From contig CAYSJP010000003.1 in assembly GCA_964431395.1 (NCBI GenBank), forward strand, positions 1-28,495: a stretch of DNA of 28,495 nt. The letters are read 5' to 3'. The DNA comes from an uncultured Halobacteriales archaeon (GTDB lineage: Archaea; Halobacteriota; Halobacteria; Halobacteriales; Hikarchaeaceae). The position numbers and the translations under genes were made by a program. This document shows positions 16,755 to 27,552 of this stretch, in pieces (position 1 is the first letter of the stretch; each line of letters starts with the position of its first letter). Under the pieces are notes generated by a model. It did no database searches and was not told the DNA's origin. It saw only the letters and a program-made list of their open reading frames with translations.

Positions 16755-16877
16755 AGCGCCACTCGTTCCGGTCGAGGCAAGAATCTGCCGCTCCGGATGC
16801 GGGTCCGTGACCGTACTATTATCACTTCCAATAACTGGGGGATGAGATATATATCACCTGGCTAGAGATCAACACCG

Positions 16878-17201
16878 ATGACATTCCACGACGCACTCGG
16901 ACCGCTGGAGGTGACGGTTCTGGTCGTCGCGATTATCGGCGCAGTGCCGATCGCGTTTCACTACAGGAAACGATCGAAGTATTTCGTCGCCGCCTACGCG
17001 CTGATCTTCGTGGGTGCCATGAGCACGAACGTCGAGAATCTGATCTTGGGCGATACGTTCAATCTATTAGAACACAGCGTCGGGTTGATGGGCGCGAGCA
17101 TCGCGTTCGCGGCCGCCGCCTATCTCCGCCGACAGAACGTCCTCTTGGCCGACAACGACGACAGCGATCCGATGACCGACGACGAGCCCGGGGGTGCGTA
17201 G
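16878..17201 (+). CDS. Small 3-TM membrane protein, probably co-transcribed with the transducer
   Basis: Three hydrophobic segments; ATATATAT TATA at -31..-24; stop lies 1 nt before the transducer ATG. Confidence 0.8.
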
Positions 17202-17202
17202 T

Positions 17203-18786
17203 ATGGTCGAGATCACCGTTTATTTTGATTTCGTCGCGCTGGTCGGGTTCCTCGTTGCCGCGGGGATCGGGATTCGAAGTTACATGGACGCCGACCTCGA
17301 GGAGGGCTTTTGGGGGGCCTTCACTTTCGCGTCGGTGCTCGGTGCCGCGTGGACGGGATCGGTCCTCCTGGAGTGGCTAGGAGTCGCCCCGGCGTGGACC
17401 GATCCGATGAGCCGTATTCTGATGTCGGCCACCATCGGCGTGTTCGCGCTCACGACGACCGGGACGCTGGGCGCCGTCGAGGATCTCAAGAGCGCGCGAG
17501 CCGAGGCCGAGTCCTCGCGACGCGACGCCGAGTCCTCGCGACGCGACGCCGAACAGGCCCGCGACGAGGCTCAGTCGGCCCGCGAGGAGTCCGAGCAACT
17601 CAGGCAGGACATAGAGAGGAAAGCCGGGACGTACGGCGACGTGATGTCGCGTGCGGCCGAGGGCGATCTCACCGTTCGCGTCGATCCGGACGGCCGGAGT
17701 GAGGCCATGGTCCGGATCGGCGAATCGTTCAACACGATGATGGACGACCTCGAGGCGACGCTCCGTCAGATCCGGTCGTTCGCCGACGATGTCGCTGCCA
17801 ACACCGAGCAGGTGTCTGCGAGCGCCAAGGAGATTCAGACTGCCAGCGGGGACGTCGCCGAGTCGACACAGGAGATCTCGGCCGGGTCAAACGACGCGAA
17901 CGAACAGCTGCGCCGCGTCACGAACGAGATGCAGACCCTCTCGGGGAGCATCGAGGAGGTCGCCGCCTCCGCCAATCAGATGGCCGAGGTGTCGGAACAG
18001 GCGGCAACACGAGGCCAGCGCGGCAGCGAGTACGCCAGCCAGGCCCTCTCAGAGATGAATCGAATCGAGACACGGACCGACGGGACGGTCGATGAGGTGG
18101 AGTCGCTGGCCGACGAAATCGAGCAGGTGGGCGACATCGTCGACGTGATCAACGATATTGCCGAGCAAACGAACATGCTCGCGTTGAACGCCTCGATCGA
18201 GGCTGCTCGTGCGGGCGAGGCCGGCGAAGGGTTCGCGGTCGTCGCTGACGAGGTCAAATCCCTCGCGGAGGAGGCGGCCGATGCGACCACCGAAATCGAA
18301 TCACTCATCGTCGACATCCAGTCCTCCACGGACCGAACGGTCGAGGACATCCGGTCGATGGGCGAGAGCGTCTCGACCGGCCTCGGGACCGTCGAGGAGG
18401 CACTCGACGAACTCGAGGGGATCGCGAGCGACATCGATGAGGTCAATCAGGGGGTCCAAGAGATCGACAAGGCGGCCGACGAGCAGGCCTCTTCCACCGA
18501 GGAAGTCGTCACGATGGTCGAAACGGTCGAGGACATAAGCGAACGGACAAGCCAGGAGGCAAGCAGCGTTTCGGCCGCCGCGGAGGAACAGACCTCCTCG
18601 CTGTCGGAGGTCACGGACAGCGTCCAGCGGCTCTCCGAACAGGCCGACGAACTCCAGGGGCTCATTGAGGCGTTCCGCCTCGACGACGAGGACGCCATCA
18701 CTCCCGGTGCCGGCGGAGCCGCGACCGCCATGCCGGCACAGGCTGACGGCGGTTTCGACCTCGATACCGAGGATACGCCCGAGTGA
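17203..18786 (+). CDS. Methyl-accepting chemotaxis protein (halobacterial transducer, Htr): 3-TM N-terminus, HAMP, signalling domain
   Basis: GDLTVRVD...[12 protein letters not shown]; [38 protein letters not shown] signalling hairpin; ATG 17203 preferred over GTG 17194. Confidence 0.93.
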
Positions 18787-18815
18787 TCACCACGCCGAGT
18801 GAGACGCCTGCGCGA

Positions 18816-19748
18816 TCACCGTCGGAGCCGGACGACGGTCTCGCCGCCCCGTTGGACGCGCTCGACCAGTCCGTCGTCCACGAGGTCGGAGACGACACCG
18901 TCGAGCCATTCCCGACCGTTCTCACCGCCAGGGGCGTAGTCGACGCGGACGCGCGGTCCCAGATCGTCGAGCGCCAGTTCGTCGTGGCCATCGAGAGCCC
19001 GAATCACCCGGCCCCGGAACTGCCGGCGGCTCCCCTCGAAGTCGGGCTGGTCGGGCACGTCGGGCGCGGTGAAATCGCCGGTCCGGTAGGCGTGACACCA
19101 CTCCCGCCAGGGGCAGGGCTCGGCGTCACACCGGGGTTGCTTCCCGCAGGCGACGCCGCCGAGTTCCATGACCGCGTTGTTCCAGGCGCGCGATTGCCCC
19201 TCGGGCAGCAGGGCGTTCGCGACGCGTTCGAAGGCCTCGTCGTCGTCCGGGACGTCCAGCGCGCGGTACAGCACGCGTTTCACGTTCGTGTCGACGACCG
19301 CGTCGCCGCTGTTGAAGGCGAAGCTCGCGACCGCGTTGGCGGTGTATGGGCCGACGCCCATCAGCTCCTGTAGCCCGTCGGGGTCCTCGGGGAACTCGCC
19401 GCCGTACTCCTCGACGATCCGTCCGGCGGCCTCCTTGAGGTACTTCGCGCGGTTGTTGTAGCCCAGCGAGTGGTCCGTCCAGAACCCCACCACGTCGGCG
19501 CGGTCGGCACCGGCGAGATCCTCGACCGTGGGCCACCGATCCAGAAACGCCTCCCAGGCGTCGACGACGCGGTCCAGCTGGGTCTGCTGGCTCATCACCT
19601 CCGAGACGAGGATCGCGTAGGGGTCGGTCGTCTCCCGCCAGGGAAAGGATCGGTGATCGGCCTCGTACCACGCGATCAGCGCCTCCCGGAACGCGTCGGC
19701 GTCCCCGGGGAGGTGCTCCGTGCCGACGTCGCGGCCGCCGTCACTCAT
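18816..19748 (-). CDS. mutY: A/G-specific adenine glycosylase (HhH-GPD)
   Basis: FPWRETTDPYAILVSEVMSQQTQ, HhH LMGVGPYTA, VVDTNVKRV, and a four-Cys cluster motif; start re-called at ATG 19748. Confidence 0.9.
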   Translation of the reverse strand: MSDGGRDVGTEHLPGDADAFREALIAWYEADHRSFPWRETTDPYAILVSEVMSQQTQLDRVVDAWEAFLDRWPTVEDLAGADRADVVGFWTDHSLGYNNRAKYLKEAAGRIVEEYGGEFPEDPDGLQELMGVGPYTANAVASFAFNSGDAVVDTNVKRVLYRALDVPDDDEAFERVANALLPEGQSRAWNNAVMELGGVACGKQPRCDAEPCPWREWCHAYRTGDFTAPDVPDQPDFEGSRRQFRGRVIRALDGHDELALDDLGPRVRVDYAPGGENGREWLDGVVSDLVDDGLVERVQRGGETVVRLRR

Positions 19749-19873
19749 CGAGCCCTGGTAGCGCTCCCGATCGCTTGTGGTTGGCGGTCCGTGATCGGTG
19801 ACCGGCACTGACCGGTCCCCACCCGGGTTCGGGACCGTAGCTTTATGCGCGGTGACGACCGCAGTTCGTGGTG

Positions 19874-21328
19874 ATGGATCCGCCGGTTCCGGCCCTCGCC
19901 TCGCGGGCGAACGCGTGTGCCGAGCACCTCCTCGCTCGGGAGGAGGTCCTCGTCGTCTCCCACATCGACGCGGACGGCCTCACGAGCGCGGCGATCGCCA
20001 CGCGTGCGCTACAGCGGGTCGGCCTCGGCGTGGAGACGGCGTTCTCGAACCAGCTCGACGACGACGAAGTCGCCCGCGTCGCCGCGACGGACCACGAGAC
20101 GGTGCTGTTCACCGACTTCGGGAGCGGCCAGCTCGAGGCGATCCGGAACCACGAGGACCGGGGTGCGTTCACGCCGGTGATCGCCGACCACCACCAGCCC
20201 GCCGACGCGGACACGGAGTACCATCTGAACCCCCTGCTCGAGGGGATCGACGGCGCCTCCGAACTCTCGGGTGCGGGCGCCGCGTACGTCCTCGCCCGGG
20301 CCCTCGGTGAACGCGCGGGACCCGGGATGAGCAGTGGGCGCACCGACACCGAGGGCGGCACCGACATGCGCGATCTCGCCGCGCTGGCCGTCGTGGGCGC
20401 GGTCGGGGACATGCAGGCGAGCGGCGGCGAACTGGTCGGCGCGAACACCGGGATCGCCGAAGAGGGCGTCGCGGCGGGCGTCCTCCGGACGGGAAAGGAC
20501 CTGACGCTGTACGGCAAGCAGACCCGGCCGCTCCCGAAACTGCTGGAGTACGCGAGCGACCTCGACGTCCCGGGCATCACCAACGACGAGGCGGGGGCCG
20601 TCTCCTTTCTGGACGGCCTCGGTCTCGACCTCGAGCGCGAGGGCGAGTGGCGTACCTGGGCGGATCTCGACGCCGGGGAGCGCCGGACGCTCGTGAGCGC
20701 GCTCATCAGGCGTGCCGTGAAACGCGGCGTGCCGGCCGACCGCATCGACGGCCTGATCGGGACCGCCTACGAGCTCACGGAGGAGCCGGAGGGAACGGAA
20801 CTCCGGGACGCCAGCGAGTTCTCGACGCTGCTCAACGCGACGGCGCGCTACGACCGCCCCGACGTCGGCCTCGGCGTCTGTCTCGGGAACCGCGAGGAGG
20901 CGCTCGACCGCGCACGCCGTTTGCTTCGGAACCACCGGCGCAACCTCTCGGAGGGACTGCAGTTCGTCCGTGAGCGCGGCGTCACCCGCGAGGACAACAT
21001 CCAGTGGTTCGACGCGGGAACGGAGATCCGGGAGACGATCGTCGGCATCGTCGCCGGGATGGCGGTCGGCGTCGACGGCGTCGATCCGGACCGGCCGATC
21101 GTCGCCTTCGCGGAGAAGGACGAGGAGGGCCTGAAAGTGTCCGCCCGTGGTTCGCCGACGCTCGTCCGCCGCGGGCTCGATCTCTCGGTCGTGATGGGCG
21201 AGTCCGCGGCCGCCGTCGACGGCGAGGGGGGCGGCCACGACGTCGCCGCCGGCGCGACGATCCCGGAGGGCTCCGAGCGTGCGTTCCTCGACCGCGCCGA
21301 CGCGATCGTGGGCGGACAACTCGGGTGA
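19874..21328 (+). CDS. recJ: DHH/DHHA1 phosphoesterase, RecJ/GAN (Cdc45-like) nuclease
   Basis: Intact SHIDADG, TDFGS, ADHH and GGGHDVAAGA motifs; CTTTAT about -30 from ATG 19874. Confidence 0.88.
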   Translation: MDPPVPALASRANACAEHLLAREEVLVVSHIDADGLTSAAIATRALQRVGLGVETAFSNQLDDDEVARVAATDHETVLFTDFGSGQLEAIRNHEDRGAFTPVIADHHQPADADTEYHLNPLLEGIDGASELSGAGAAYVLARALGERAGPGMSSGRTDTEGGTDMRDLAALAVVGAVGDMQASGGELVGANTGIAEEGVAAGVLRTGKDLTLYGKQTRPLPKLLEYASDLDVPGITNDEAGAVSFLDGLGLDLEREGEWRTWADLDAGERRTLVSALIRRAVKRGVPADRIDGLIGTAYELTEEPEGTELRDASEFSTLLNATARYDRPDVGLGVCLGNREEALDRARRLLRNHRRNLSEGLQFVRERGVTREDNIQWFDAGTEIRETIVGIVAGMAVGVDGVDPDRPIVAFAEKDEEGLKVSARGSPTLVRRGLDLSVVMGESAAAVDGEGGGHDVAAGATIPEGSERAFLDRADAIVGGQLG

Positions 21329-21350
21329 GTCGCATCGCTCCCCCGGGAGT

Positions 21351-22103
21351 TCACCGTGACGCGCCGATCAGTCCCGCGGCCTCCGCCAGCGCGCCGTCGA
21401 CCCCGACCGGATCGTCCGGCGTGGACTCCCACGCGTGCTCGTGGACCAGCCACGCGCCGCCCCCGGCCGCGTGAGCCTCAACGCAGGCAGCGAGGTCGAG
21501 GTCCCCGTTACCCAGGGGGACGCGATCGTCCGTCTCCCCGTCGTGATCCGTGGGGTGAAACAGCGGCGCACGGTCGTCCAGCCGCTCCCGCAGGCGGACT
21601 GGATCCAGTCCGGCCGCGAGGACGCTCGCGGCGTCGAGGTCGAACCCGACGTGCTCGGTTAGCTCGATCAGGTACTCGTACGCCGTCCGTCCCCCGACGT
21701 CGGTGAACTCGTACCCCCGGCCGTGGTAGTGGACCGAGACGCCGTAGCCCCGGAGGGCCACGGCGAGTCCGTCGAGGCGCTGTGCAGCGGTCTCGACGGC
21801 GCGCTCCGTCTCGAAGCGCTCGGGCGGGATGCCCGGCACGACGAACCGCTCACAGCCCAGGCCGCGGTAGAACCCCAGCGTCGCCTCCGTGTCCTCGCCC
21901 AGCTGGTGGATGCTCACGTGTGCGCCGACCGCCGACAGGCCGGTCTCCGCCATCGCCGACCTGATTCCGTGGACGTCCGCCTCCTCCGTACCGGGGGCGA
22001 ACTCGACGCCCTCGAACCCGGCTGCCGCGGCGCGCTCGATGAGGTCCGCGAGCGGGCGGTCGAAATCGGGCGCGGGAGGCAACTGGACGGCGGGTCGGAC
22101 CAT
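21351..22103 (-). CDS. Sugar phosphate isomerase/epimerase (xylose-isomerase-like TIM barrel)
   Basis: AAAGFEGVEF, GLSAVGAHV and LGNGDLDL resemble the IolE/AP-endonuclease-2 family. Confidence 0.75.
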   Translation of the reverse strand: MVRPAVQLPPAPDFDRPLADLIERAAAAGFEGVEFAPGTEEADVHGIRSAMAETGLSAVGAHVSIHQLGEDTEATLGFYRGLGCERFVVPGIPPERFETERAVETAAQRLDGLAVALRGYGVSVHYHGRGYEFTDVGGRTAYEYLIELTEHVGFDLDAASVLAAGLDPVRLRERLDDRAPLFHPTDHDGETDDRVPLGNGDLDLAACVEAHAAGGGAWLVHEHAWESTPDDPVGVDGALAEAAGLIGASR

Positions 22104-22183
22104 GCAGGTGGGAACGACGGGACGAGCAAGTGGGTTTCGTTCCGGGGGTGGCGCTTACCGGTACACGGCGAGGGCAGTCGTCA

Positions 22184-24178
22184 TCAGTCGCCGTGGATCT
22201 GATCGCGGATCTCCTCCGGAACGCTGGGGTCACGCAGCGTCGTCGTGTCGCCGAGGTCGTCGTCGTTGGAGATGTTCTCCAGCAGCCGGCGCATGATCTT
22301 ACCCGACCGGGTCTTGGGCAGGTCGTCGGCGAAGATCACGTTCGCCGGCCGGGCGAAGGCGCCGATCTCGTCCTCGACGGCCTCGATCACCTTCCCGCGC
22401 ACCGCCTCGCTCTCCTCGACGCCCTCACGGACCGTGACGTAGGCATCGGGCACCGCCCCCTTCTGGGCGTCCTCGCGGGCGGCGACCGCAGCCTCGGCGA
22501 CCTCCTCGACCTCGGCGACCGCCGACTCGAGTTCCATCGTCCCCAGACGGTGTCCGGCGACGTTCATCACGTCGTCCAGCCGGCCCAGCACCCTGAAGTA
22601 GCCGTCGCGCTCGTGGACCGCGCCGTCGCCCGCCTCGTACACCCAGTCGGTCCAGTCGTCGCTCCCCGTGTCCGAGAAGCGCTTCCAGTACTCCTCGATG
22701 AACCGCTCGTCGTTGCCGTAGACGGTCTGGAGCATCCCGGGCCAGGGGCGCTCGATGACGAGGTTGCCGGCACGCCCGCTCGCCGCCTCGACGGGATTCC
22801 CGTTGTCGTCGTAGATCGCCGGCTGGATGCCGGGACAGGGCTTTCCGGCGGAGCCGGGCTTCATGTCCTCGAGGGCGGGCAGGTTCGTGATGAGGTGGCC
22901 GCCGGTCTCGGTCTGCCACCACGTGTCGACGATGACGGCGTCGCCGTCGCCGATGTGGTCGTAGTACCACAGCCACGCTTCGGGCTGGATCGGCTCGCCG
23001 ACGGTCGTCATGTGCCGGAAGTCGAAGTCGTAGGACGCGGGAATGTCCTCGCCCCACTTCATGAACATCCGGACGGCCGTGGGGGAGGTGTGGAAGACGT
23101 CGACGTCGTACTTCTCGGCGATCTCCCAGATGCGTCCCTTGTGGGGGTGGTCCGGCGTCCCCTCGTACATCACGCTCGTGGTCCCCAGTGCGAGGGGACC
23201 GTAGACGATGTAGGAGTGGCCGGTGATCCACCCGATGTCGGCGGCACACCAGTAGGTGTCTTCGGGCTCGATGTCGAGTACGTACTTCGAGGTGCCCGTC
23301 GCGTACGCCAGATACCCCCCGGTGCGGTGCTGACACCCCTTTGGCTTGCCCGTCGTGCCGGAGGTGTACATGAGAAAGAGGGGGTCCTCGGCGTCACGGG
23401 AGACTGGGTCCACGCGTGCGCGCTCGTTGTTCGCGAGCAACTCCGACACGAGAACGTCCCGACCCTCGACGAGGTCGGCCTCCTCGTGCAACTCGCCCTC
23501 GTGTCGTTCCCAGACCAGCAGCGTGTCGACGTCGGTGTCCGCCTCCTCGAGTGCCTCGTCGGCCTTCTGTTTGTGATCCAGGAACTCGCCGCGCCGGTAG
23601 TAGCCGTCGACCGTGACCACGACGTCAGAATCTGCGGCGTCGACGCGCTGGGCGAGCGCGCTCGCGGAGAAGCCCGCGAACACCTCCGAGTGTGGCGCGC
23701 CGATGCGCGCACACGCGAGCATCGTGATCGGCAGCGCGGGGAGCATCGGGAGGTGCAGCGTCACGACGTCGTCCTCCTCGACCCCGACGTCCCGGAGGGC
23801 GGCAGCCATCTGGTTGACCTGCCGGTAGAGGTCCCGGTACGTGATGTTGCGCTGATCGCCGCCCTCGCCCTCCCAGAGCAGGGCGACCTGGTTCTTTCGC
23901 TCCTCGAGATGACGGTCGATGCAGTTGTACGACGCGTTCAGTTCGCCGCCGACGAACCACTCGAAGAACGGGGGATCCGAGCCGTCGAACGTCTCGTCCC
24001 AGTGGTCGTCCCAGTCGAGCAGTTCGGCGTACTCCTCGAACCCCTCCGGGAAATCGGCAAAGCGGTCGTACACGTCCGGATCGCTCACGTTCGCCTGACC
24101 GACGAACTCCGTCGGTGGCCGGAAGTACTCCTGTTCGGACAGCCGCGACTCGATCTCAGGATCTCCTTGCTCTGACAT
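22184..24178 (-). CDS. acs: Acetate--CoA ligase (AMP-forming acetyl-CoA synthetase)
   Basis: YTSGTTGKPKG, DIGWITGHSY, DTWWQTETG, GRLDDVMNVAGHRLG and LPKTRSGKIMRR; GAGGTG SD upstream. Confidence 0.96.
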   Translation of the reverse strand: MSEQGDPEIESRLSEQEYFRPPTEFVGQANVSDPDVYDRFADFPEGFEEYAELLDWDDHWDETFDGSDPPFFEWFVGGELNASYNCIDRHLEERKNQVALLWEGEGGDQRNITYRDLYRQVNQMAAALRDVGVEEDDVVTLHLPMLPALPITMLACARIGAPHSEVFAGFSASALAQRVDAADSDVVVTVDGYYRRGEFLDHKQKADEALEEADTDVDTLLVWERHEGELHEEADLVEGRDVLVSELLANNERARVDPVSRDAEDPLFLMYTSGTTGKPKGCQHRTGGYLAYATGTSKYVLDIEPEDTYWCAADIGWITGHSYIVYGPLALGTTSVMYEGTPDHPHKGRIWEIAEKYDVDVFHTSPTAVRMFMKWGEDIPASYDFDFRHMTTVGEPIQPEAWLWYYDHIGDGDAVIVDTWWQTETGGHLITNLPALEDMKPGSAGKPCPGIQPAIYDDNGNPVEAASGRAGNLVIERPWPGMLQTVYGNDERFIEEYWKRFSDTGSDDWTDWVYEAGDGAVHERDGYFRVLGRLDDVMNVAGHRLGTMELESAVAEVEEVAEAAVAAREDAQKGAVPDAYVTVREGVEESEAVRGKVIEAVEDEIGAFARPANVIFADDLPKTRSGKIMRRLLENISNDDDLGDTTTLRDPSVPEEIRDQIHGD

Positions 24179-24336
24179 CGTTTACACCTCGTGTATGACG
24201 GGGTAGCGGTTCCTAATAATGGTTGGTGGCGTTTAGGGGGTCGACCCGCCGACTACGGCGGGACCCCACGAATCCACGAACGAAATCGAACAGTTATAAG
24301 CATGCGCGCTCCGAGATGCGGACGAGGCCACACTGC

Positions 24337-24759
24337 ATGGCAGCGATCGAAAGCACCCTCCTGATGGGGGGCGTCCTGCTCGTGATAATCGTCGCGACCG
24401 GTTTAGCCAGGGACTGGGAACGGAGTCCCGCCACGGACAGGGACCAGGCCGCGTCCCTGGTCGACGTCTTCCGGAGCCCGATCACGTGGACCGTCGGGTT
24501 CGTCGCACTGGCGCTACTGCTCGCGGTCGGCGCGATCGCCTTCGTCGGCGGCTCGAACGTCCTCGGAATCGGACGGAACGCCGGCGAACTGATCCTGATG
24601 GGGGTGTTCGGGGCCCTCATGGCCGGCTTCGTGTTCGCCGGACTGTACGCAACGGCCCGAAACAGGGGGCTGAAAGGCGCACAGGCCGCGGGCCTCGGCT
24701 CGATCATCCTCGGTCTCCTCGTCGTCGTTGGCATCTCGTTACAGCTGCTGTTGTTGTGA
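24337..24759 (+). CDS. Hypothetical membrane protein (about 4 TM)
   Basis: Hydrophobic ORF; CGAAA..TTATAAG BRE/TATA at 24281-24300; start re-called at 24337. Confidence 0.7.
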   Translation: MAAIESTLLMGGVLLVIIVATGLARDWERSPATDRDQAASLVDVFRSPITWTVGFVALALLLAVGAIAFVGGSNVLGIGRNAGELILMGVFGALMAGFVFAGLYATARNRGLKGAQAAGLGSIILGLLVVVGISLQLLLL

Positions 24760-25653
24760 GGACTCCACGCGCCGGACGGCGTCCTTTTCGGGAGCGCCGA
24801 ACGTTTCGGGATCGAGCACGGCCGCGAACTGCTCGAGCGTGTTCACGAGCCGCGGCCCGGGGCGGTTGACGTGGTGGTGGCCGTCCATGGCGTACACCTC
24901 GCCCTCCCGGGCGGCAGCGAGTTCCCCGAACCCCTCCCGTTCGATCAGCTCGTCGACGTGTTCGAGCGTCCGGTCCAGCGGGAACCCGCAGGGCGCGGCG
25001 ATCAGCACCTCCGGGTCGTACGAAAGCAACGTCTCGAACTCCCGGGGCCGGGATCGCTCGCCCGGATCGGCCATCCCGTAGGCGCCGCCGGCAGTCTCGA
25101 TCATGCCCGGGACCCAGTGGCCCGCGACCATCACGGGGTCCATCCAGTCGGCGACGACCACGCGACGTCCGGTCGTGGTGGCGCGCTCGCGCACCCCCCG
25201 GATCCGCGCCTCGAGGTCCGCGACCAGTTCCCGGGCCCGTTTTTCCGTGCCCGTTCGCTCGCCGATCCGGCGGACGTCCGCGAGCACGTCCGGGAGGCCG
25301 TGTGGGTGGGTCGTCAGTATCTCGGCGTCCAATCCCAGGTCGTCGATGGCCGTCCGCACGAGCCTGTCGTCGACCGCACAGACGTCACAGACCCCCTGCG
25401 TGACGATCAGGTCCGGATCGGCCTCCCCGAGAACGCCCTCGCGGAGTTCGTAGACCCCGCCCTCCGCCTCCGCACTCGCGACCTGCTGATTTATTTTCTC
25501 GCTCGCCGCGTCCGGGTCGACACGGCTCCGGTTGGCTGCCGGCTTCCCGCGGGCCGCCGGCGGGTAGTCACACTCGTGTGATACGGCGACGGGATCGACG
25601 CCGAGTGCGTACAGGATCTCGGTCGCCGAGGGGAGAAGCGAGACCACGCGCAT
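24739..25653 (-). CDS. BtuF-like cobalamin-binding / periplasmic-binding-fold protein without signal peptide
   Basis: MRVVSLLPSATEIL, VSHECDYP, TQGVCDVCAV, WMDPVMVAGHWVP and NRPGPRL; start re-called at 25653. Confidence 0.82.
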   Translation of the reverse strand: MRVVSLLPSATEILYALGVDPVAVSHECDYPPAARGKPAANRSRVDPDAASEKINQQVASAEAEGGVYELREGVLGEADPDLIVTQGVCDVCAVDDRLVRTAIDDLGLDAEILTTHPHGLPDVLADVRRIGERTGTEKRARELVADLEARIRGVRERATTTGRRVVVADWMDPVMVAGHWVPGMIETAGGAYGMADPGERSRPREFETLLSYDPEVLIAAPCGFPLDRTLEHVDELIEREGFGELAAAREGEVYAMDGHHHVNRPGPRLVNTLEQFAAVLDPETFGAPEKDAVRRVESSQQQQL

Positions 25654-25774
25654 GACCGAGGATGGGACCCCGGCTCCCAAATGTCTGCCGGAGGTGCGGG
25701 CGTATCTCCGCCGTGCCCGCCTCGTAGCTCCCGAGGCGAATGAATTATAGGCGCGGTGGGACGAGCGTCAGTAA

Positions 25775-26146
25775 ATGCGGAACATCGGGGTGGACGACTC
25801 GCCGGACCTCCAGACGGTCCTCGACGCGCTCGACGACCCCGACTGTCGAACGATCGTGAAACGGCTCACGGAACCCATGACCGCGAACGAGATTTCGGAG
25901 ACGACCGGCGTGCCGCTGTCGACCACCTACCGGAAACTCGACCTGCTGACTGAGGCGTCGATCCTCGAGGAACGCACGGAGATCAGGGAGGGTGGCCACC
26001 ACACGACGAAATACGTCCTCGATTTCGAGGCCGTCCGGATCGGCCTCGCAAAGGACCGGGAGTTCGAGGTGTCGATCACCCGCCCCGCACGCTCCGCGGA
26101 CGAACAGCTCTCGGAACTATGGTCGGAAGTTCGCAAGGAGACCTGA
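25775..26146 (+). CDS. Winged-helix (ArsR-like) transcriptional regulator
   Basis: VLDALDDPDCRTI...MTANEISETTGVPLSTTYRKLDLL helix-turn-helix. Confidence 0.88.
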   Translation: MRNIGVDDSPDLQTVLDALDDPDCRTIVKRLTEPMTANEISETTGVPLSTTYRKLDLLTEASILEERTEIREGGHHTTKYVLDFEAVRIGLAKDREFEVSITRPARSADEQLSELWSEVRKET

Positions 26147-26147
26147 C

Positions 26148-26420
26148 ATGCCACACTTCAACTTCGTCGTCCTGTTCAAGACGATCACCCTCCTGTTGGG
26201 GGCACTGATCACGTACTTCGCCTACAGCGCGTACCGCCGGACCGACGCGAGGGCGCTCGGCGCGCTCTCCGTCGGATTCGGGATCGTGACGGTCGGTGCA
26301 CTCCTCGCGGGGGTCGTCGATCAGGCACTCGGAGCCGCCCAGAAAAACGCTCTCCTGCTCGAGAGTTCGCTCACGATGGTCGGGTTCGCGGTCATCCTCT
26401 ACTCGCTGTACGCCGAGTAG
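26148..26420 (+). CDS. Small 3-TM membrane protein (DUF7521-like) coupled to the wHTH gene
   Basis: ATG 1 nt after the HTH stop with AGGAG upstream; KTITLLLGALITYFAYSAYRRT. The family name is from recall only. Confidence 0.78.
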   Translation: MPHFNFVVLFKTITLLLGALITYFAYSAYRRTDARALGALSVGFGIVTVGALLAGVVDQALGAAQKNALLLESSLTMVGFAVILYSLYAE

Positions 26421-26425
26421 GCGGA

Positions 26426-27529
26426 TCAGAAATCCGAGGGGGGGTCGGCCCCGGCGTCCCGACCGTCCGTGCTCGCCTCGATCCCGCTCCCCTCGACCGG
26501 CTCGTGGACGGCCCGATAGCCCCCCGCGACGCCGTCGACGTCTTTCACCACGTGAAACCGGATGCCTTTCTCCTGTTTCGTGGTCACGGGGAACGCGTAG
26601 TTGTCGGCCTCGTACGCGAAGTCGTCGCCGGATTCGCGCGTCTCTTCGACGAACGCCCGGTGGTCTTCCAGGCGCGTCCGGATCACGGTCTCGGAGAGGT
26701 CCGGCGCTTCCGACACCCGGTCGTCGAAGACGCGCGTGAACTCCTCGCGGAGTTCGTAGCCGACGGAGTTCCGCCCGGCGACCAGCGCAGCCAGCGAGGT
26801 CGTCCCCGTGCCCCAGAAGGGATCGAGGACGGTGTCGCCGTAGACGCTGTACATGTTGATCAGGCGGTAGGGTATCTCGAAGGGGTACGCCGCCGAGCGG
26901 TCCCGCAGGTCCCCGTCGTCGAGTGACTGCAGGTCGCCCGTGATCCCCGTCCACACGTCGGAGAACCACCGGTTGCGCTCCTCCCAGAAGTAGGCCGCGC
27001 CGTACCTGCGCTCGGCCCCGGGTTCGAAGCTCCGTGACCGCGTCCCGTTCCGGAACACCAGAACGTACTCGTGTTCCAGCGTGACGTAGGCGTTCGGCGG
27101 GAGCATCCCGGAACCCATGAACTTCGCCGCCGAATTGACCGGCTTCCGCCAGAGTATCTCCGGGAGGGGCTCGAACCCCCGCTTCGCGAGGGCGTCGACG
27201 ACCCTGGAGTGGTTCTGGTAGACGCGGAAGCTCCCGTCGACCGTCCGGGTCGCGTCCCCGACGTTGATGCACGCCATCCCGCCGTCGACGAGGACGCGCT
27301 TCACCTCCGACCACACCCCGTTCAGCTCCGCGTGCATCAGTTCGAACGCCTCTCGGCCGTCCCCGGCGTCCAGCGCGTCACGTATCGAGGGGTTGAGATC
27401 GGCGAAGGTGTCGTCCCACATCTCGATCATCGGGTACGGGGGCGACGTCACGACCAGCTCGACGGAGTCGTCCTCGACCTCCTCGAGTTGCCGGGCGTCC
27501 CCGACCACGACGCGGTGTTGCGTTTCCAT
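26426..27529 (-). CDS. zim: Orphan beta-class (N4-C/N6-A) DNA methyltransferase, probably the haloarchaeal CTAG methylase Zim
   Basis: Catalytic TSPPY near the N-terminus and SAM-binding DPFWGTGT later (beta order); no adjacent endonuclease; CTAG is scarce in the window; start re-called at ATG 27529. Confidence 0.75.
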   Translation of the reverse strand: METQHRVVVGDARQLEEVEDDSVELVVTSPPYPMIEMWDDTFADLNPSIRDALDAGDGREAFELMHAELNGVWSEVKRVLVDGGMACINVGDATRTVDGSFRVYQNHSRVVDALAKRGFEPLPEILWRKPVNSAAKFMGSGMLPPNAYVTLEHEYVLVFRNGTRSRSFEPGAERRYGAAYFWEERNRWFSDVWTGITGDLQSLDDGDLRDRSAAYPFEIPYRLINMYSVYGDTVLDPFWGTGTTSLAALVAGRNSVGYELREEFTRVFDDRVSEAPDLSETVIRTRLEDHRAFVEETRESGDDFAYEADNYAFPVTTKQEKGIRFHVVKDVDGVAGGYRAVHEPVEGSGIEASTDGRDAGADPPSDF

Positions 27530-27552
27530 TACTGGGTACACTCGGATTCCGC

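Follow-up and report, generated by a model that had tools for sequence, protein, structure and literature searches.

The stretch of DNA analysed here, hereafter the window, comprises 28,495 nucleotides (nt) of contig CAYSJP010000003.1 (assembly GCA_964431395.1, positions 1 to 28,495, forward strand) from an uncultured Halobacteriales archaeon of the Hikarchaeaceae, with a GC content of 64-73%, and its source is a metagenome-assembled genome that is 70% complete. Two pairs of plus-strand genes in the window each combine a gene for a small protein with three predicted transmembrane (TM) helices and a gene for a signalling protein. In the first pair, a 107-amino-acid (aa) protein, here called A (16878..17201), lies upstream of a 527-aa halobacterial transducer (Htr) of the Htr7/Htr17 type (17203..18786), with a spacer of one nucleotide (TAG-t-ATG, 17199-17205). 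In the second, a 123-aa ArsR-like winged helix-turn-helix (wHTH) regulator (25775..26146; Pfam HTH_20, 1.3e-9) lies upstream of a 90-aa protein, here called B (26148..26420), which belongs to Pfam DUF7521 (PF24365, 1.2e-31), and the spacer is again one nucleotide (TGA-c-ATG, 26144-26150). An earlier note on this DNA, whose genes, coordinates, spacers and quoted letters are all present in the sequence, had read A and B as one small 3-TM module wired to two different outputs, a chemoreceptor and a transcription factor. It is likely, instead, that the region holds two independent signalling cassettes of two genes, each conserved in its own right and alike in membrane topology only: a transducer with the partner tabulated for such transducers as 3TMprot, and a wHTH regulator with DUF7521.

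The domain order of the transducer is three TM helices, a charged coiled coil, and a methyl-accepting chemotaxis protein (MCP) signalling domain. The latter (residues 276-445, ~18028-18537) matches Pfam MCPsignal (PF00015) at 7.5e-48 with 163 bits, where the cut-off is 34.6, and a weak, below-threshold match to HAMP (1.2e-3) lies within the coiled coil. The start codon is placed at ATG 17203 because orthologues share an MV(E)I... N-terminus. The N-terminal 3-TM domain, termed Htr-N (residues 1-95, 17203..17487), is delimited by alignment, hydropathy and its free-standing homologues; it has three hydrophobic segments, which appear as three long helices when a read-through construct from orthologues is modelled with AlphaFold2 (AF2), and its conserved residues are D9, F36-W37, E57 and G60, the last two within an LEWxG motif at the end of TM2.

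Assignment of A to the 3TMprot partner family rests on family searches, alignment, AF2 and the position of its gene just before that of a 3-TM Htr. An exhaustive search of a library of 1.8 billion proteins returned 45 representatives of the family at E<=1e-3, and one match of that search, the 1354-aa P0157, was set aside as a spurious hit to an RTX-repeat protein. Alignments were assembled for the A family (A2, 43 sequences), for DUF7521 (A3, 38 sequences) and for the Htr N-terminal domain (A4). In the first of these E65 is invariant, G21, Y40, T50, E53 and H66 are nearly so, and N51 and N62 are also conserved. No Pfam or NCBIfam family matches A above its cut-off, and a protein atlas search with A returned unnamed clusters only. 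Of 401 Halobacteria genomes sampled, 51 have the family, as do 21 of 91 genera. An AF2 model based on the 43-sequence alignment (predicted local distance difference test, pLDDT, 88.7; predicted template modelling score, pTM, 0.73) places helices at residues 9-27, 31-57 and 60-94.

Every sequence and profile test of a common module gave values at background. BLASTP aligns A with B at E 0.54 and 21% identity, A with the Htr N-terminus at E 0.69, and B with the Htr N-terminus at E 0.042 over 12 residues only. The loose similarity once seen between the transducer's own N-terminus and the small proteins is not supported. The Pfam DUF7521 model has no match to A at E<=1, either by hmmscan or in a scan of the whole genome that recovers five copies at that threshold, none of them at 16878; for the 43 members of the A family 25 families were listed, and DUF7521 is not one of them. 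Profile-profile comparison of the three 3-TM segments with hhalign yields probabilities of 0.3-12% across the three pairs: A and DUF7521 give 2.5% (score 18.3, P 0.018), and the Htr N-terminus gives 0.3-1.3% with A and 5-12% with DUF7521 (P 0.0025 at 12%). Null comparisons give similar or higher scores, as the A profile scores 18.0 against a reversed DUF7521 profile versus the real 18.3, and column-shuffled Htr-N profiles reach 22.6 against A versus a real score of 15.9. Hidden Markov model (HMM) searches with hmmsearch give at most 9.6 bits across families versus 127-142 bits within a family. At the level of sequence, then, no homology between the A and DUF7521 families is detectable.

The residues that define each family tell the same story. 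The letters of the pattern drawn earlier through A and B are indeed present, but their agreement is not in excess of chance, and only three elements of it are kept in both families: the Tyr-Arg following TM1, a single aromatic residue, and the Glu with which TM3 opens (E65 in A, E72 in DUF7521). The hallmarks of A, T50-N51-x-E53 and N62-x-x-E65-H66, have no counterpart in DUF7521, and conversely K11-T12, G79-F80 and Y85-S86-L87-Y88 of DUF7521 have none in A; A28-x-x-R31-T32 and G43-F44 are further hallmark residues of DUF7521. What the three segments do share is their build. Hydropathy and AF2 helices bear out three hydrophobic helices in A, B and the Htr N-terminus, and counts of Lys plus Arg, which are richest in loop 1 and after TM3, predict an N-out/C-in topology for all three; in each, the first cytoplasmic loop is basic and flanked by aromatic residues. 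This common 3-TM, N-out/C-in topology with Lys and Arg in loop 1 accounts for the Tyr-Arg after TM1 and for the overall likeness of the segments. Gene order is also opposite in the two pairs, A being encoded upstream of Htr and DUF7521 downstream of wHTH.

The coupling of each small protein to its neighbour gene, by contrast with the supposed kinship of the two, was supported by surveys of gene neighbourhoods. In 30 of 30 fetched loci, an A-family gene is followed directly by an MCP gene in the same orientation; depending on which start codon is taken, the two genes overlap by up to 8 nt or are separated by up to 3 nt. From the invariant codons of A a degenerate DNA pattern was derived, and it located 44 named loci, in Haloferax, Haloarcula, Halorubrum, Halosimplex, Halobacterium and others. 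The order A, 3-TM domain, MCP domain is found in 43 of these, and the remaining locus, from an uncultured archaeon, has A and a free-standing 3-TM protein. Within the phylum sample, every Halobacteria genome with a match to Htr-N also has a match to A. A word-indexed search with the Htr N-terminus found a single relative. Apparent fusions of A to Htr, suggested by long open frames, were rejected as stop-to-stop artefacts of high-GC DNA; in Halorubrum ezzemoulense DSM 17463 (L106:767-1069), the coding sequence of the Htr N-terminal domain runs over two frames, through either a frameshift or an assembly error. A recurring third neighbour gene that might hint at a stimulus was not seen.

The two partners also vary together. 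Distance matrices of A and Htr-N for 56 non-identical pairs are correlated with a Mantel r of 0.85, a value reached by 0 of 2000 permutations, and clusters drawn separately from the two families agree with adjusted Rand indices of 0.92, 0.84 and 0.95 at 5, 6 and 8 clusters, respectively. Halobacterium salinarum DSM 3754 has two A-Htr loci: L121, with matches of 6e-34 for the small protein and 1e-40 for the 3-TM domain, and L130, where the corresponding values are 8e-30 and 4e-36. These two pairs fall in different matched clusters, and the Htr N-terminus of the window falls in the Htr17-type cluster. One of the two loci adjoins a convergent MCP gene, as htr7 (OE3473F) adjoins cosT (OE3474R), and on the basis of this neighbour and of published tables L121 and L130 are assigned to htr17 and htr7.

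Transducers of this kind are already on record. Exactly two 3-TM transducers, Htr7 and Htr17, are tabulated for H. salinarum, with their signal unknown (PMC3579733), and the review 'Taxis in archaea' lists both with an uncharacterised '3TMprot' partner and an unknown stimulus (Quax, Albers and Pfeiffer 2018; PMC7289035). The pairing itself is therefore on record, as annotation only. In Htr7 (OE3473F; HVO_1999) and Htr17 (OE3436R), as in the window, a 3-TM MCP-type transducer is preceded in the operon by a 3-TM protein; there is no difference of kind, and the window adds a further member with an Htr17-type N-terminus. The literature on Htr7 and Htr17 gives no mechanism, no description of the partner family, and no mention of free-standing or PAS-linked versions, and searches with the H. 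salinarum and Haloferax volcanii locus tags returned mentions in tables and omics data only, with no functional study found.

Homologues of Htr-N are also found as free-standing proteins of ~95-100 aa. In all 11 loci that lie outside the Halobacteria, the gene directly downstream of an A-family gene matches the Htr-N profile. Seven of these loci are metagenomic contigs with distant A genes (L037-L039, L053, L054, L056 and L057); the others are three loci in two small genomes from other families of the same phylum (L049, L050 and L052) and one in an uncultured archaeon (L098). Most of the junctions are 4-nt overlaps, and in 10 of the 11 loci the Htr-N match has an E of 1e-8 to 1e-31. The eleventh, L056, is an 817-bp metagenome contig (ERZ10759785 NODE_355464; L056:13-817) in which a borderline A gene (P0166, E 7e-4) overlaps a 3-TM-PAS gene: a weak match to Htr-N (E 0.0086) with an LEWFG motif is followed by a PAS domain (PAS_8, 7.6e-8), and the contig stops before any kinase domain could appear. 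This one contig tentatively suggests that a 3-TM domain of the Htr-N type has also been fused to PAS. A possible origin of A and Htr-N by duplication was considered, as the free-standing Htr-N homologue of L049 gives 15.6 bits with the A-family HMM; the broad-profile hhalign comparison, at 1.3%, fails to back that score, and a duplication is therefore not claimed. At L039:4001-5436, a Logan contig from SRR16248214, a free-standing pair of A and 3-TM protein adjoins a gene for a Zip-family metal transporter on the opposite strand, an anecdotal single case and the only neighbourhood hint to a metal stimulus.

The second cassette is conserved on a different scale. B matches PF24365 over the full length of the model (1-82 of 82) with 109.3 bits against a cut-off of 27, all 119 of its homologues carry the same domain, and DUF7521 is found in 150 of 151 Halobacteria genomes, in 1-11 copies each; A, for its part, is not a member of the family. 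The wHTH protein scores 38.4 bits with HTH_20 against a cut-off of 27, and falls below the cut-off of the NCBIfam metalloregulator model (27 bits against 55). In 30 of the 30 best-matching loci, DUF7521 directly follows a same-strand homologue of this regulator (E 1e-31 to 1e-51), mostly with a spacer of ~0-30 nt. DUF7521 is most conserved at AYRRT in loop 1, which is predicted to be cytoplasmic, and at the C-terminal YSLYAE. A literature search on the family found one mention: the most up-regulated genes in a qarA deletion of H. volcanii encode a transmembrane protein and a regulator that is annotated as DUF7521 (HVO_B0192 and HVO_B0193; bioRxiv 10.1101/2025.11.10.687552). Two of the other copies in the window's own genome depart from the wHTH arrangement. 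One (contig C68, L002:1462-2579) overlaps the end of a gene for a 240-aa DUF2103 zinc-ribbon 'predicted metal-binding protein', and in the other (contig C47, L003:1489-1700) a DUF7521-like open reading frame (ORF) of ~66 aa retains the last two helices only (model positions 33-81) and has no adjoining regulator.

How might the first pair work? The earlier proposal of a split receptor with 3+3 TM helices is supported for the Htr pair by the strict coupling, the congruent subfamilies and the free-standing two-gene versions, but not as a system common to both outputs. The 107-aa protein would be a separate receptor or co-receptor subunit that packs on the 3-TM N-terminal domain of Htr to form a membrane-embedded 3+3 TM sensor, and because transducers are dimers the complex would probably be 2:2. 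Conserved polar residues near the predicted outer membrane boundary, T50, N51, E53, N62, E65 and H66 in A and D9 and E57 in Htr, may together form a binding site for a cation or a proton. By way of Htr TM3 and the coiled coil, the signal would reach the MCP signalling domain and then the Che proteins. Sensory rhodopsins I and II and their transducers (SRI-HtrI and SRII-HtrII) form 2:2 complexes in which signalling proceeds through intramembrane helix-helix contacts. The likeness lies in a separate integral-membrane receptor encoded beside its transducer, with a comparable complex proposed for the window pair; the differences are that the window partner has three TM helices rather than seven and is not a rhodopsin, and that the window transducer has three TM helices rather than two. 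In its widest form this reading holds that A and Htr-N are two halves of an old and so far undescribed heteromeric 3+3 TM sensor, free-standing outside the haloarchaea, whose second half was fused at least twice (to MCP and, in one metagenomic contig, to PAS), with an outer-face cation or proton site of Glu, His, Asn and Asp. It is put forward tentatively, at somewhat less than an even chance.

For the second pair, DUF7521 may control the wHTH protein at the membrane, where it would bind the regulator or let it go. The model is SdpR of Bacillus subtilis, an ArsR-family autorepressor that, as Ellermeier et al. are said to have reported in 2006, is sequestered by the downstream-encoded membrane protein SdpI. 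Here too a gene for an ArsR-like regulator is followed by one for a multi-pass membrane protein, and by this analogy the conservation of loop 1 and of YSLYAE favours binding of the regulator at the membrane; homology between DUF7521 and SdpI was not seen, though no search was aimed at it.

Of the explanations that compete with these readings, the broadest is that A, B and the Htr N-terminus are, after all, divergent copies of one 3-TM sensor module, with a chemoreceptor as one output and a transcription factor as the other. The equal length class, the three helices and their orientation, the Tyr-Arg after TM1 in all three segments and the conserved Glu at the start of TM3 in both small families speak for it; hhalign does align TM1-loop-TM2 in the register of the earlier note, with the P values given above for the two pairs that involve DUF7521; and a weak protein-atlas neighbour of A (score 0.78) carries DUF5985, a domain also matched weakly by DUF7521 members. 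Such a module is nevertheless very unlikely, in view of the BLASTP values, the failure of the DUF7521 HMM to find A, an hhalign probability of at most 3% for A and DUF7521, null profiles that score as well as or better than real ones, and low cross-family HMM scores, to which are added the different hallmark residues, the opposite gene order relative to the partner, and a phyletic spread of 13% of Halobacteria genomes for A versus 99% for DUF7521. One consideration does count against treating the two cassettes as wholly separate, namely that a very distant common ancestry of the small 3-TM proteins would lie beyond exclusion by sequence methods. A narrower alternative accepts the pairing of A with Htr and denies that A is a sensor subunit: A would be an accessory factor for the insertion, stability or clustering of Htr, or the ancestral 3+3 unit would be a small transporter or channel on which Htr reports, that is, a transceptor. 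Free-standing pairs occur without any output domain, and the ancestral function therefore need not be signalling. SemiSWEET transporters consist of 3-TM protomers that pair into 6-TM units, and the best match of the A profile among PDB sequences is Escherichia coli SemiSWEET 4x5m, whose helices align in register at a non-significant E of 0.083; no meaningful match came from such searches with the Htr N-terminus or with DUF7521. The model of A has no Foldseek match in the PDB at E<3.5, and the best non-significant ones are 3-TM Mrp and complex I subunits with membrane carboxylates, such as MrpG and ND4L/NuoK. Another weak likeness is to TM5-7 of 7TMR-DISM_7TM (PF07695), matched by 20 of the 43 A members (best E 2.4e-4), though by the A of the window at 16.2 bits, below the gathering threshold of 29. 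Both leads, 7TMR-DISM and SemiSWEET, fall below every threshold and leave the conserved polar residues of A uncovered, and neither is recovered by Foldseek. Invariant outer-face Glu, His and Asn in both subunits would also suit a binding site better than a chaperone, and the attachment of the second subunit to MCP, with PAS as a tentative further case, argues for repeated recruitment to signalling, so that an accessory or transporter role is considered quite improbable.

The sensor reading has its own difficulties. As a single-chain stand-in for the A-Htr complex, read-through translations were made of eight loci in which the Htr start is in frame after the A stop; AF2 modelled these eight sequences as six long helices at a modest pLDDT of 68.5 and pTM of 0.54. 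Foldseek returned generic 7-TM bundles only for the fused model (E>=0.02); neither A nor the fusion has an informative structural relative by Foldseek. The candidate ligand site is deduced from conservation and predicted topology, and the congruence of subfamilies is supporting evidence rather than proof, because shared ancestry or species phylogeny and inheritance as an operon contribute to it. All of these temper the proposal of a 3+3 sensor. For the second cassette, the competing explanation is that wHTH is a mere autoregulator of its operon and DUF7521 an effector, for instance a stress-related membrane protein, that sends no signal to the regulator. Operons in which a regulator gene comes first and a regulated gene follows are common, HVO_B0192 and HVO_B0193 change expression together in the qarA deletion, and some DUF7521 paralogues have no wHTH neighbour. 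The last point, together with others, also tells against sequestration: among the four further DUF7521 copies in the window's genome, two follow a wHTH gene and two have none adjacent; the window regulator is not of the SdpR family by score (17.7 bits with NF033789, against a cut-off of 100); and the mechanism is argued by analogy. Simple autoregulation is still held to be rather unlikely, since the strongest conservation of DUF7521, in its cytoplasmic loop and YSLYAE, would suit a protein-binding surface, and the pair is intact in 30 of 30 loci, mostly with short spacers.

The new findings of the analysis are the free-standing homologues of Htr-N beside distant A genes, the tentative PAS fusion, the congruent subfamilies and the conserved outer-face residues; the free-standing pairs and these residues are modest leads to the stimulus of Htr7/Htr17-type transducers. 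Htr7 and Htr17 (HVO_1999 in Haloferax) belong to the haloarchaeal transducers that still await a stimulus, and their partner has so far been a table entry; that partner now has a family definition, and both subunits have outer-face residues that can be mutated. With these residues, and with a pair of A and Htr-N that occurs in other archaea without an output domain, the orphan-receptor question becomes testable in H. salinarum or H. volcanii. If the heteromeric 3+3 sensor is real, it would assign a sensor and a testable class of stimulus to two long-orphan Halobacterium transducers. Removal of the tempting link between A and DUF7521 leaves the latter as a separate, near-universal haloarchaeal membrane protein associated with a regulator, and worth a study of its own.

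Upstream of the first cassette, an AT-rich stretch read directly from the sequence, GATATATAT (16846..16854, plus strand), lies 24-32 nt before ATG 16878 and may be the TATA box of a leaderless or short-leader transcript of the two genes A and Htr. The genes that separate the two cassettes are unrelated to them and of a housekeeping kind, encoding a HhH-GPD glycosylase, a DHH phosphoesterase, a TIM-barrel protein, an acetyl-CoA synthetase, a small membrane protein and a homologue of periplasmic binding proteins. A four-helix membrane ORF that matches no Pfam family (24328-24759, plus strand) overlaps tail to tail with the end of the gene for the Peripla_BP_2 homologue (24739-25680, minus strand), in which no obvious signal peptide was seen. 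Beyond the second cassette, a gene for an N6/N4 DNA methylase (PF01555, 2.7e-35; 26426-27541, minus strand) is convergent with DUF7521 and ends 5 nt past its stop codon.

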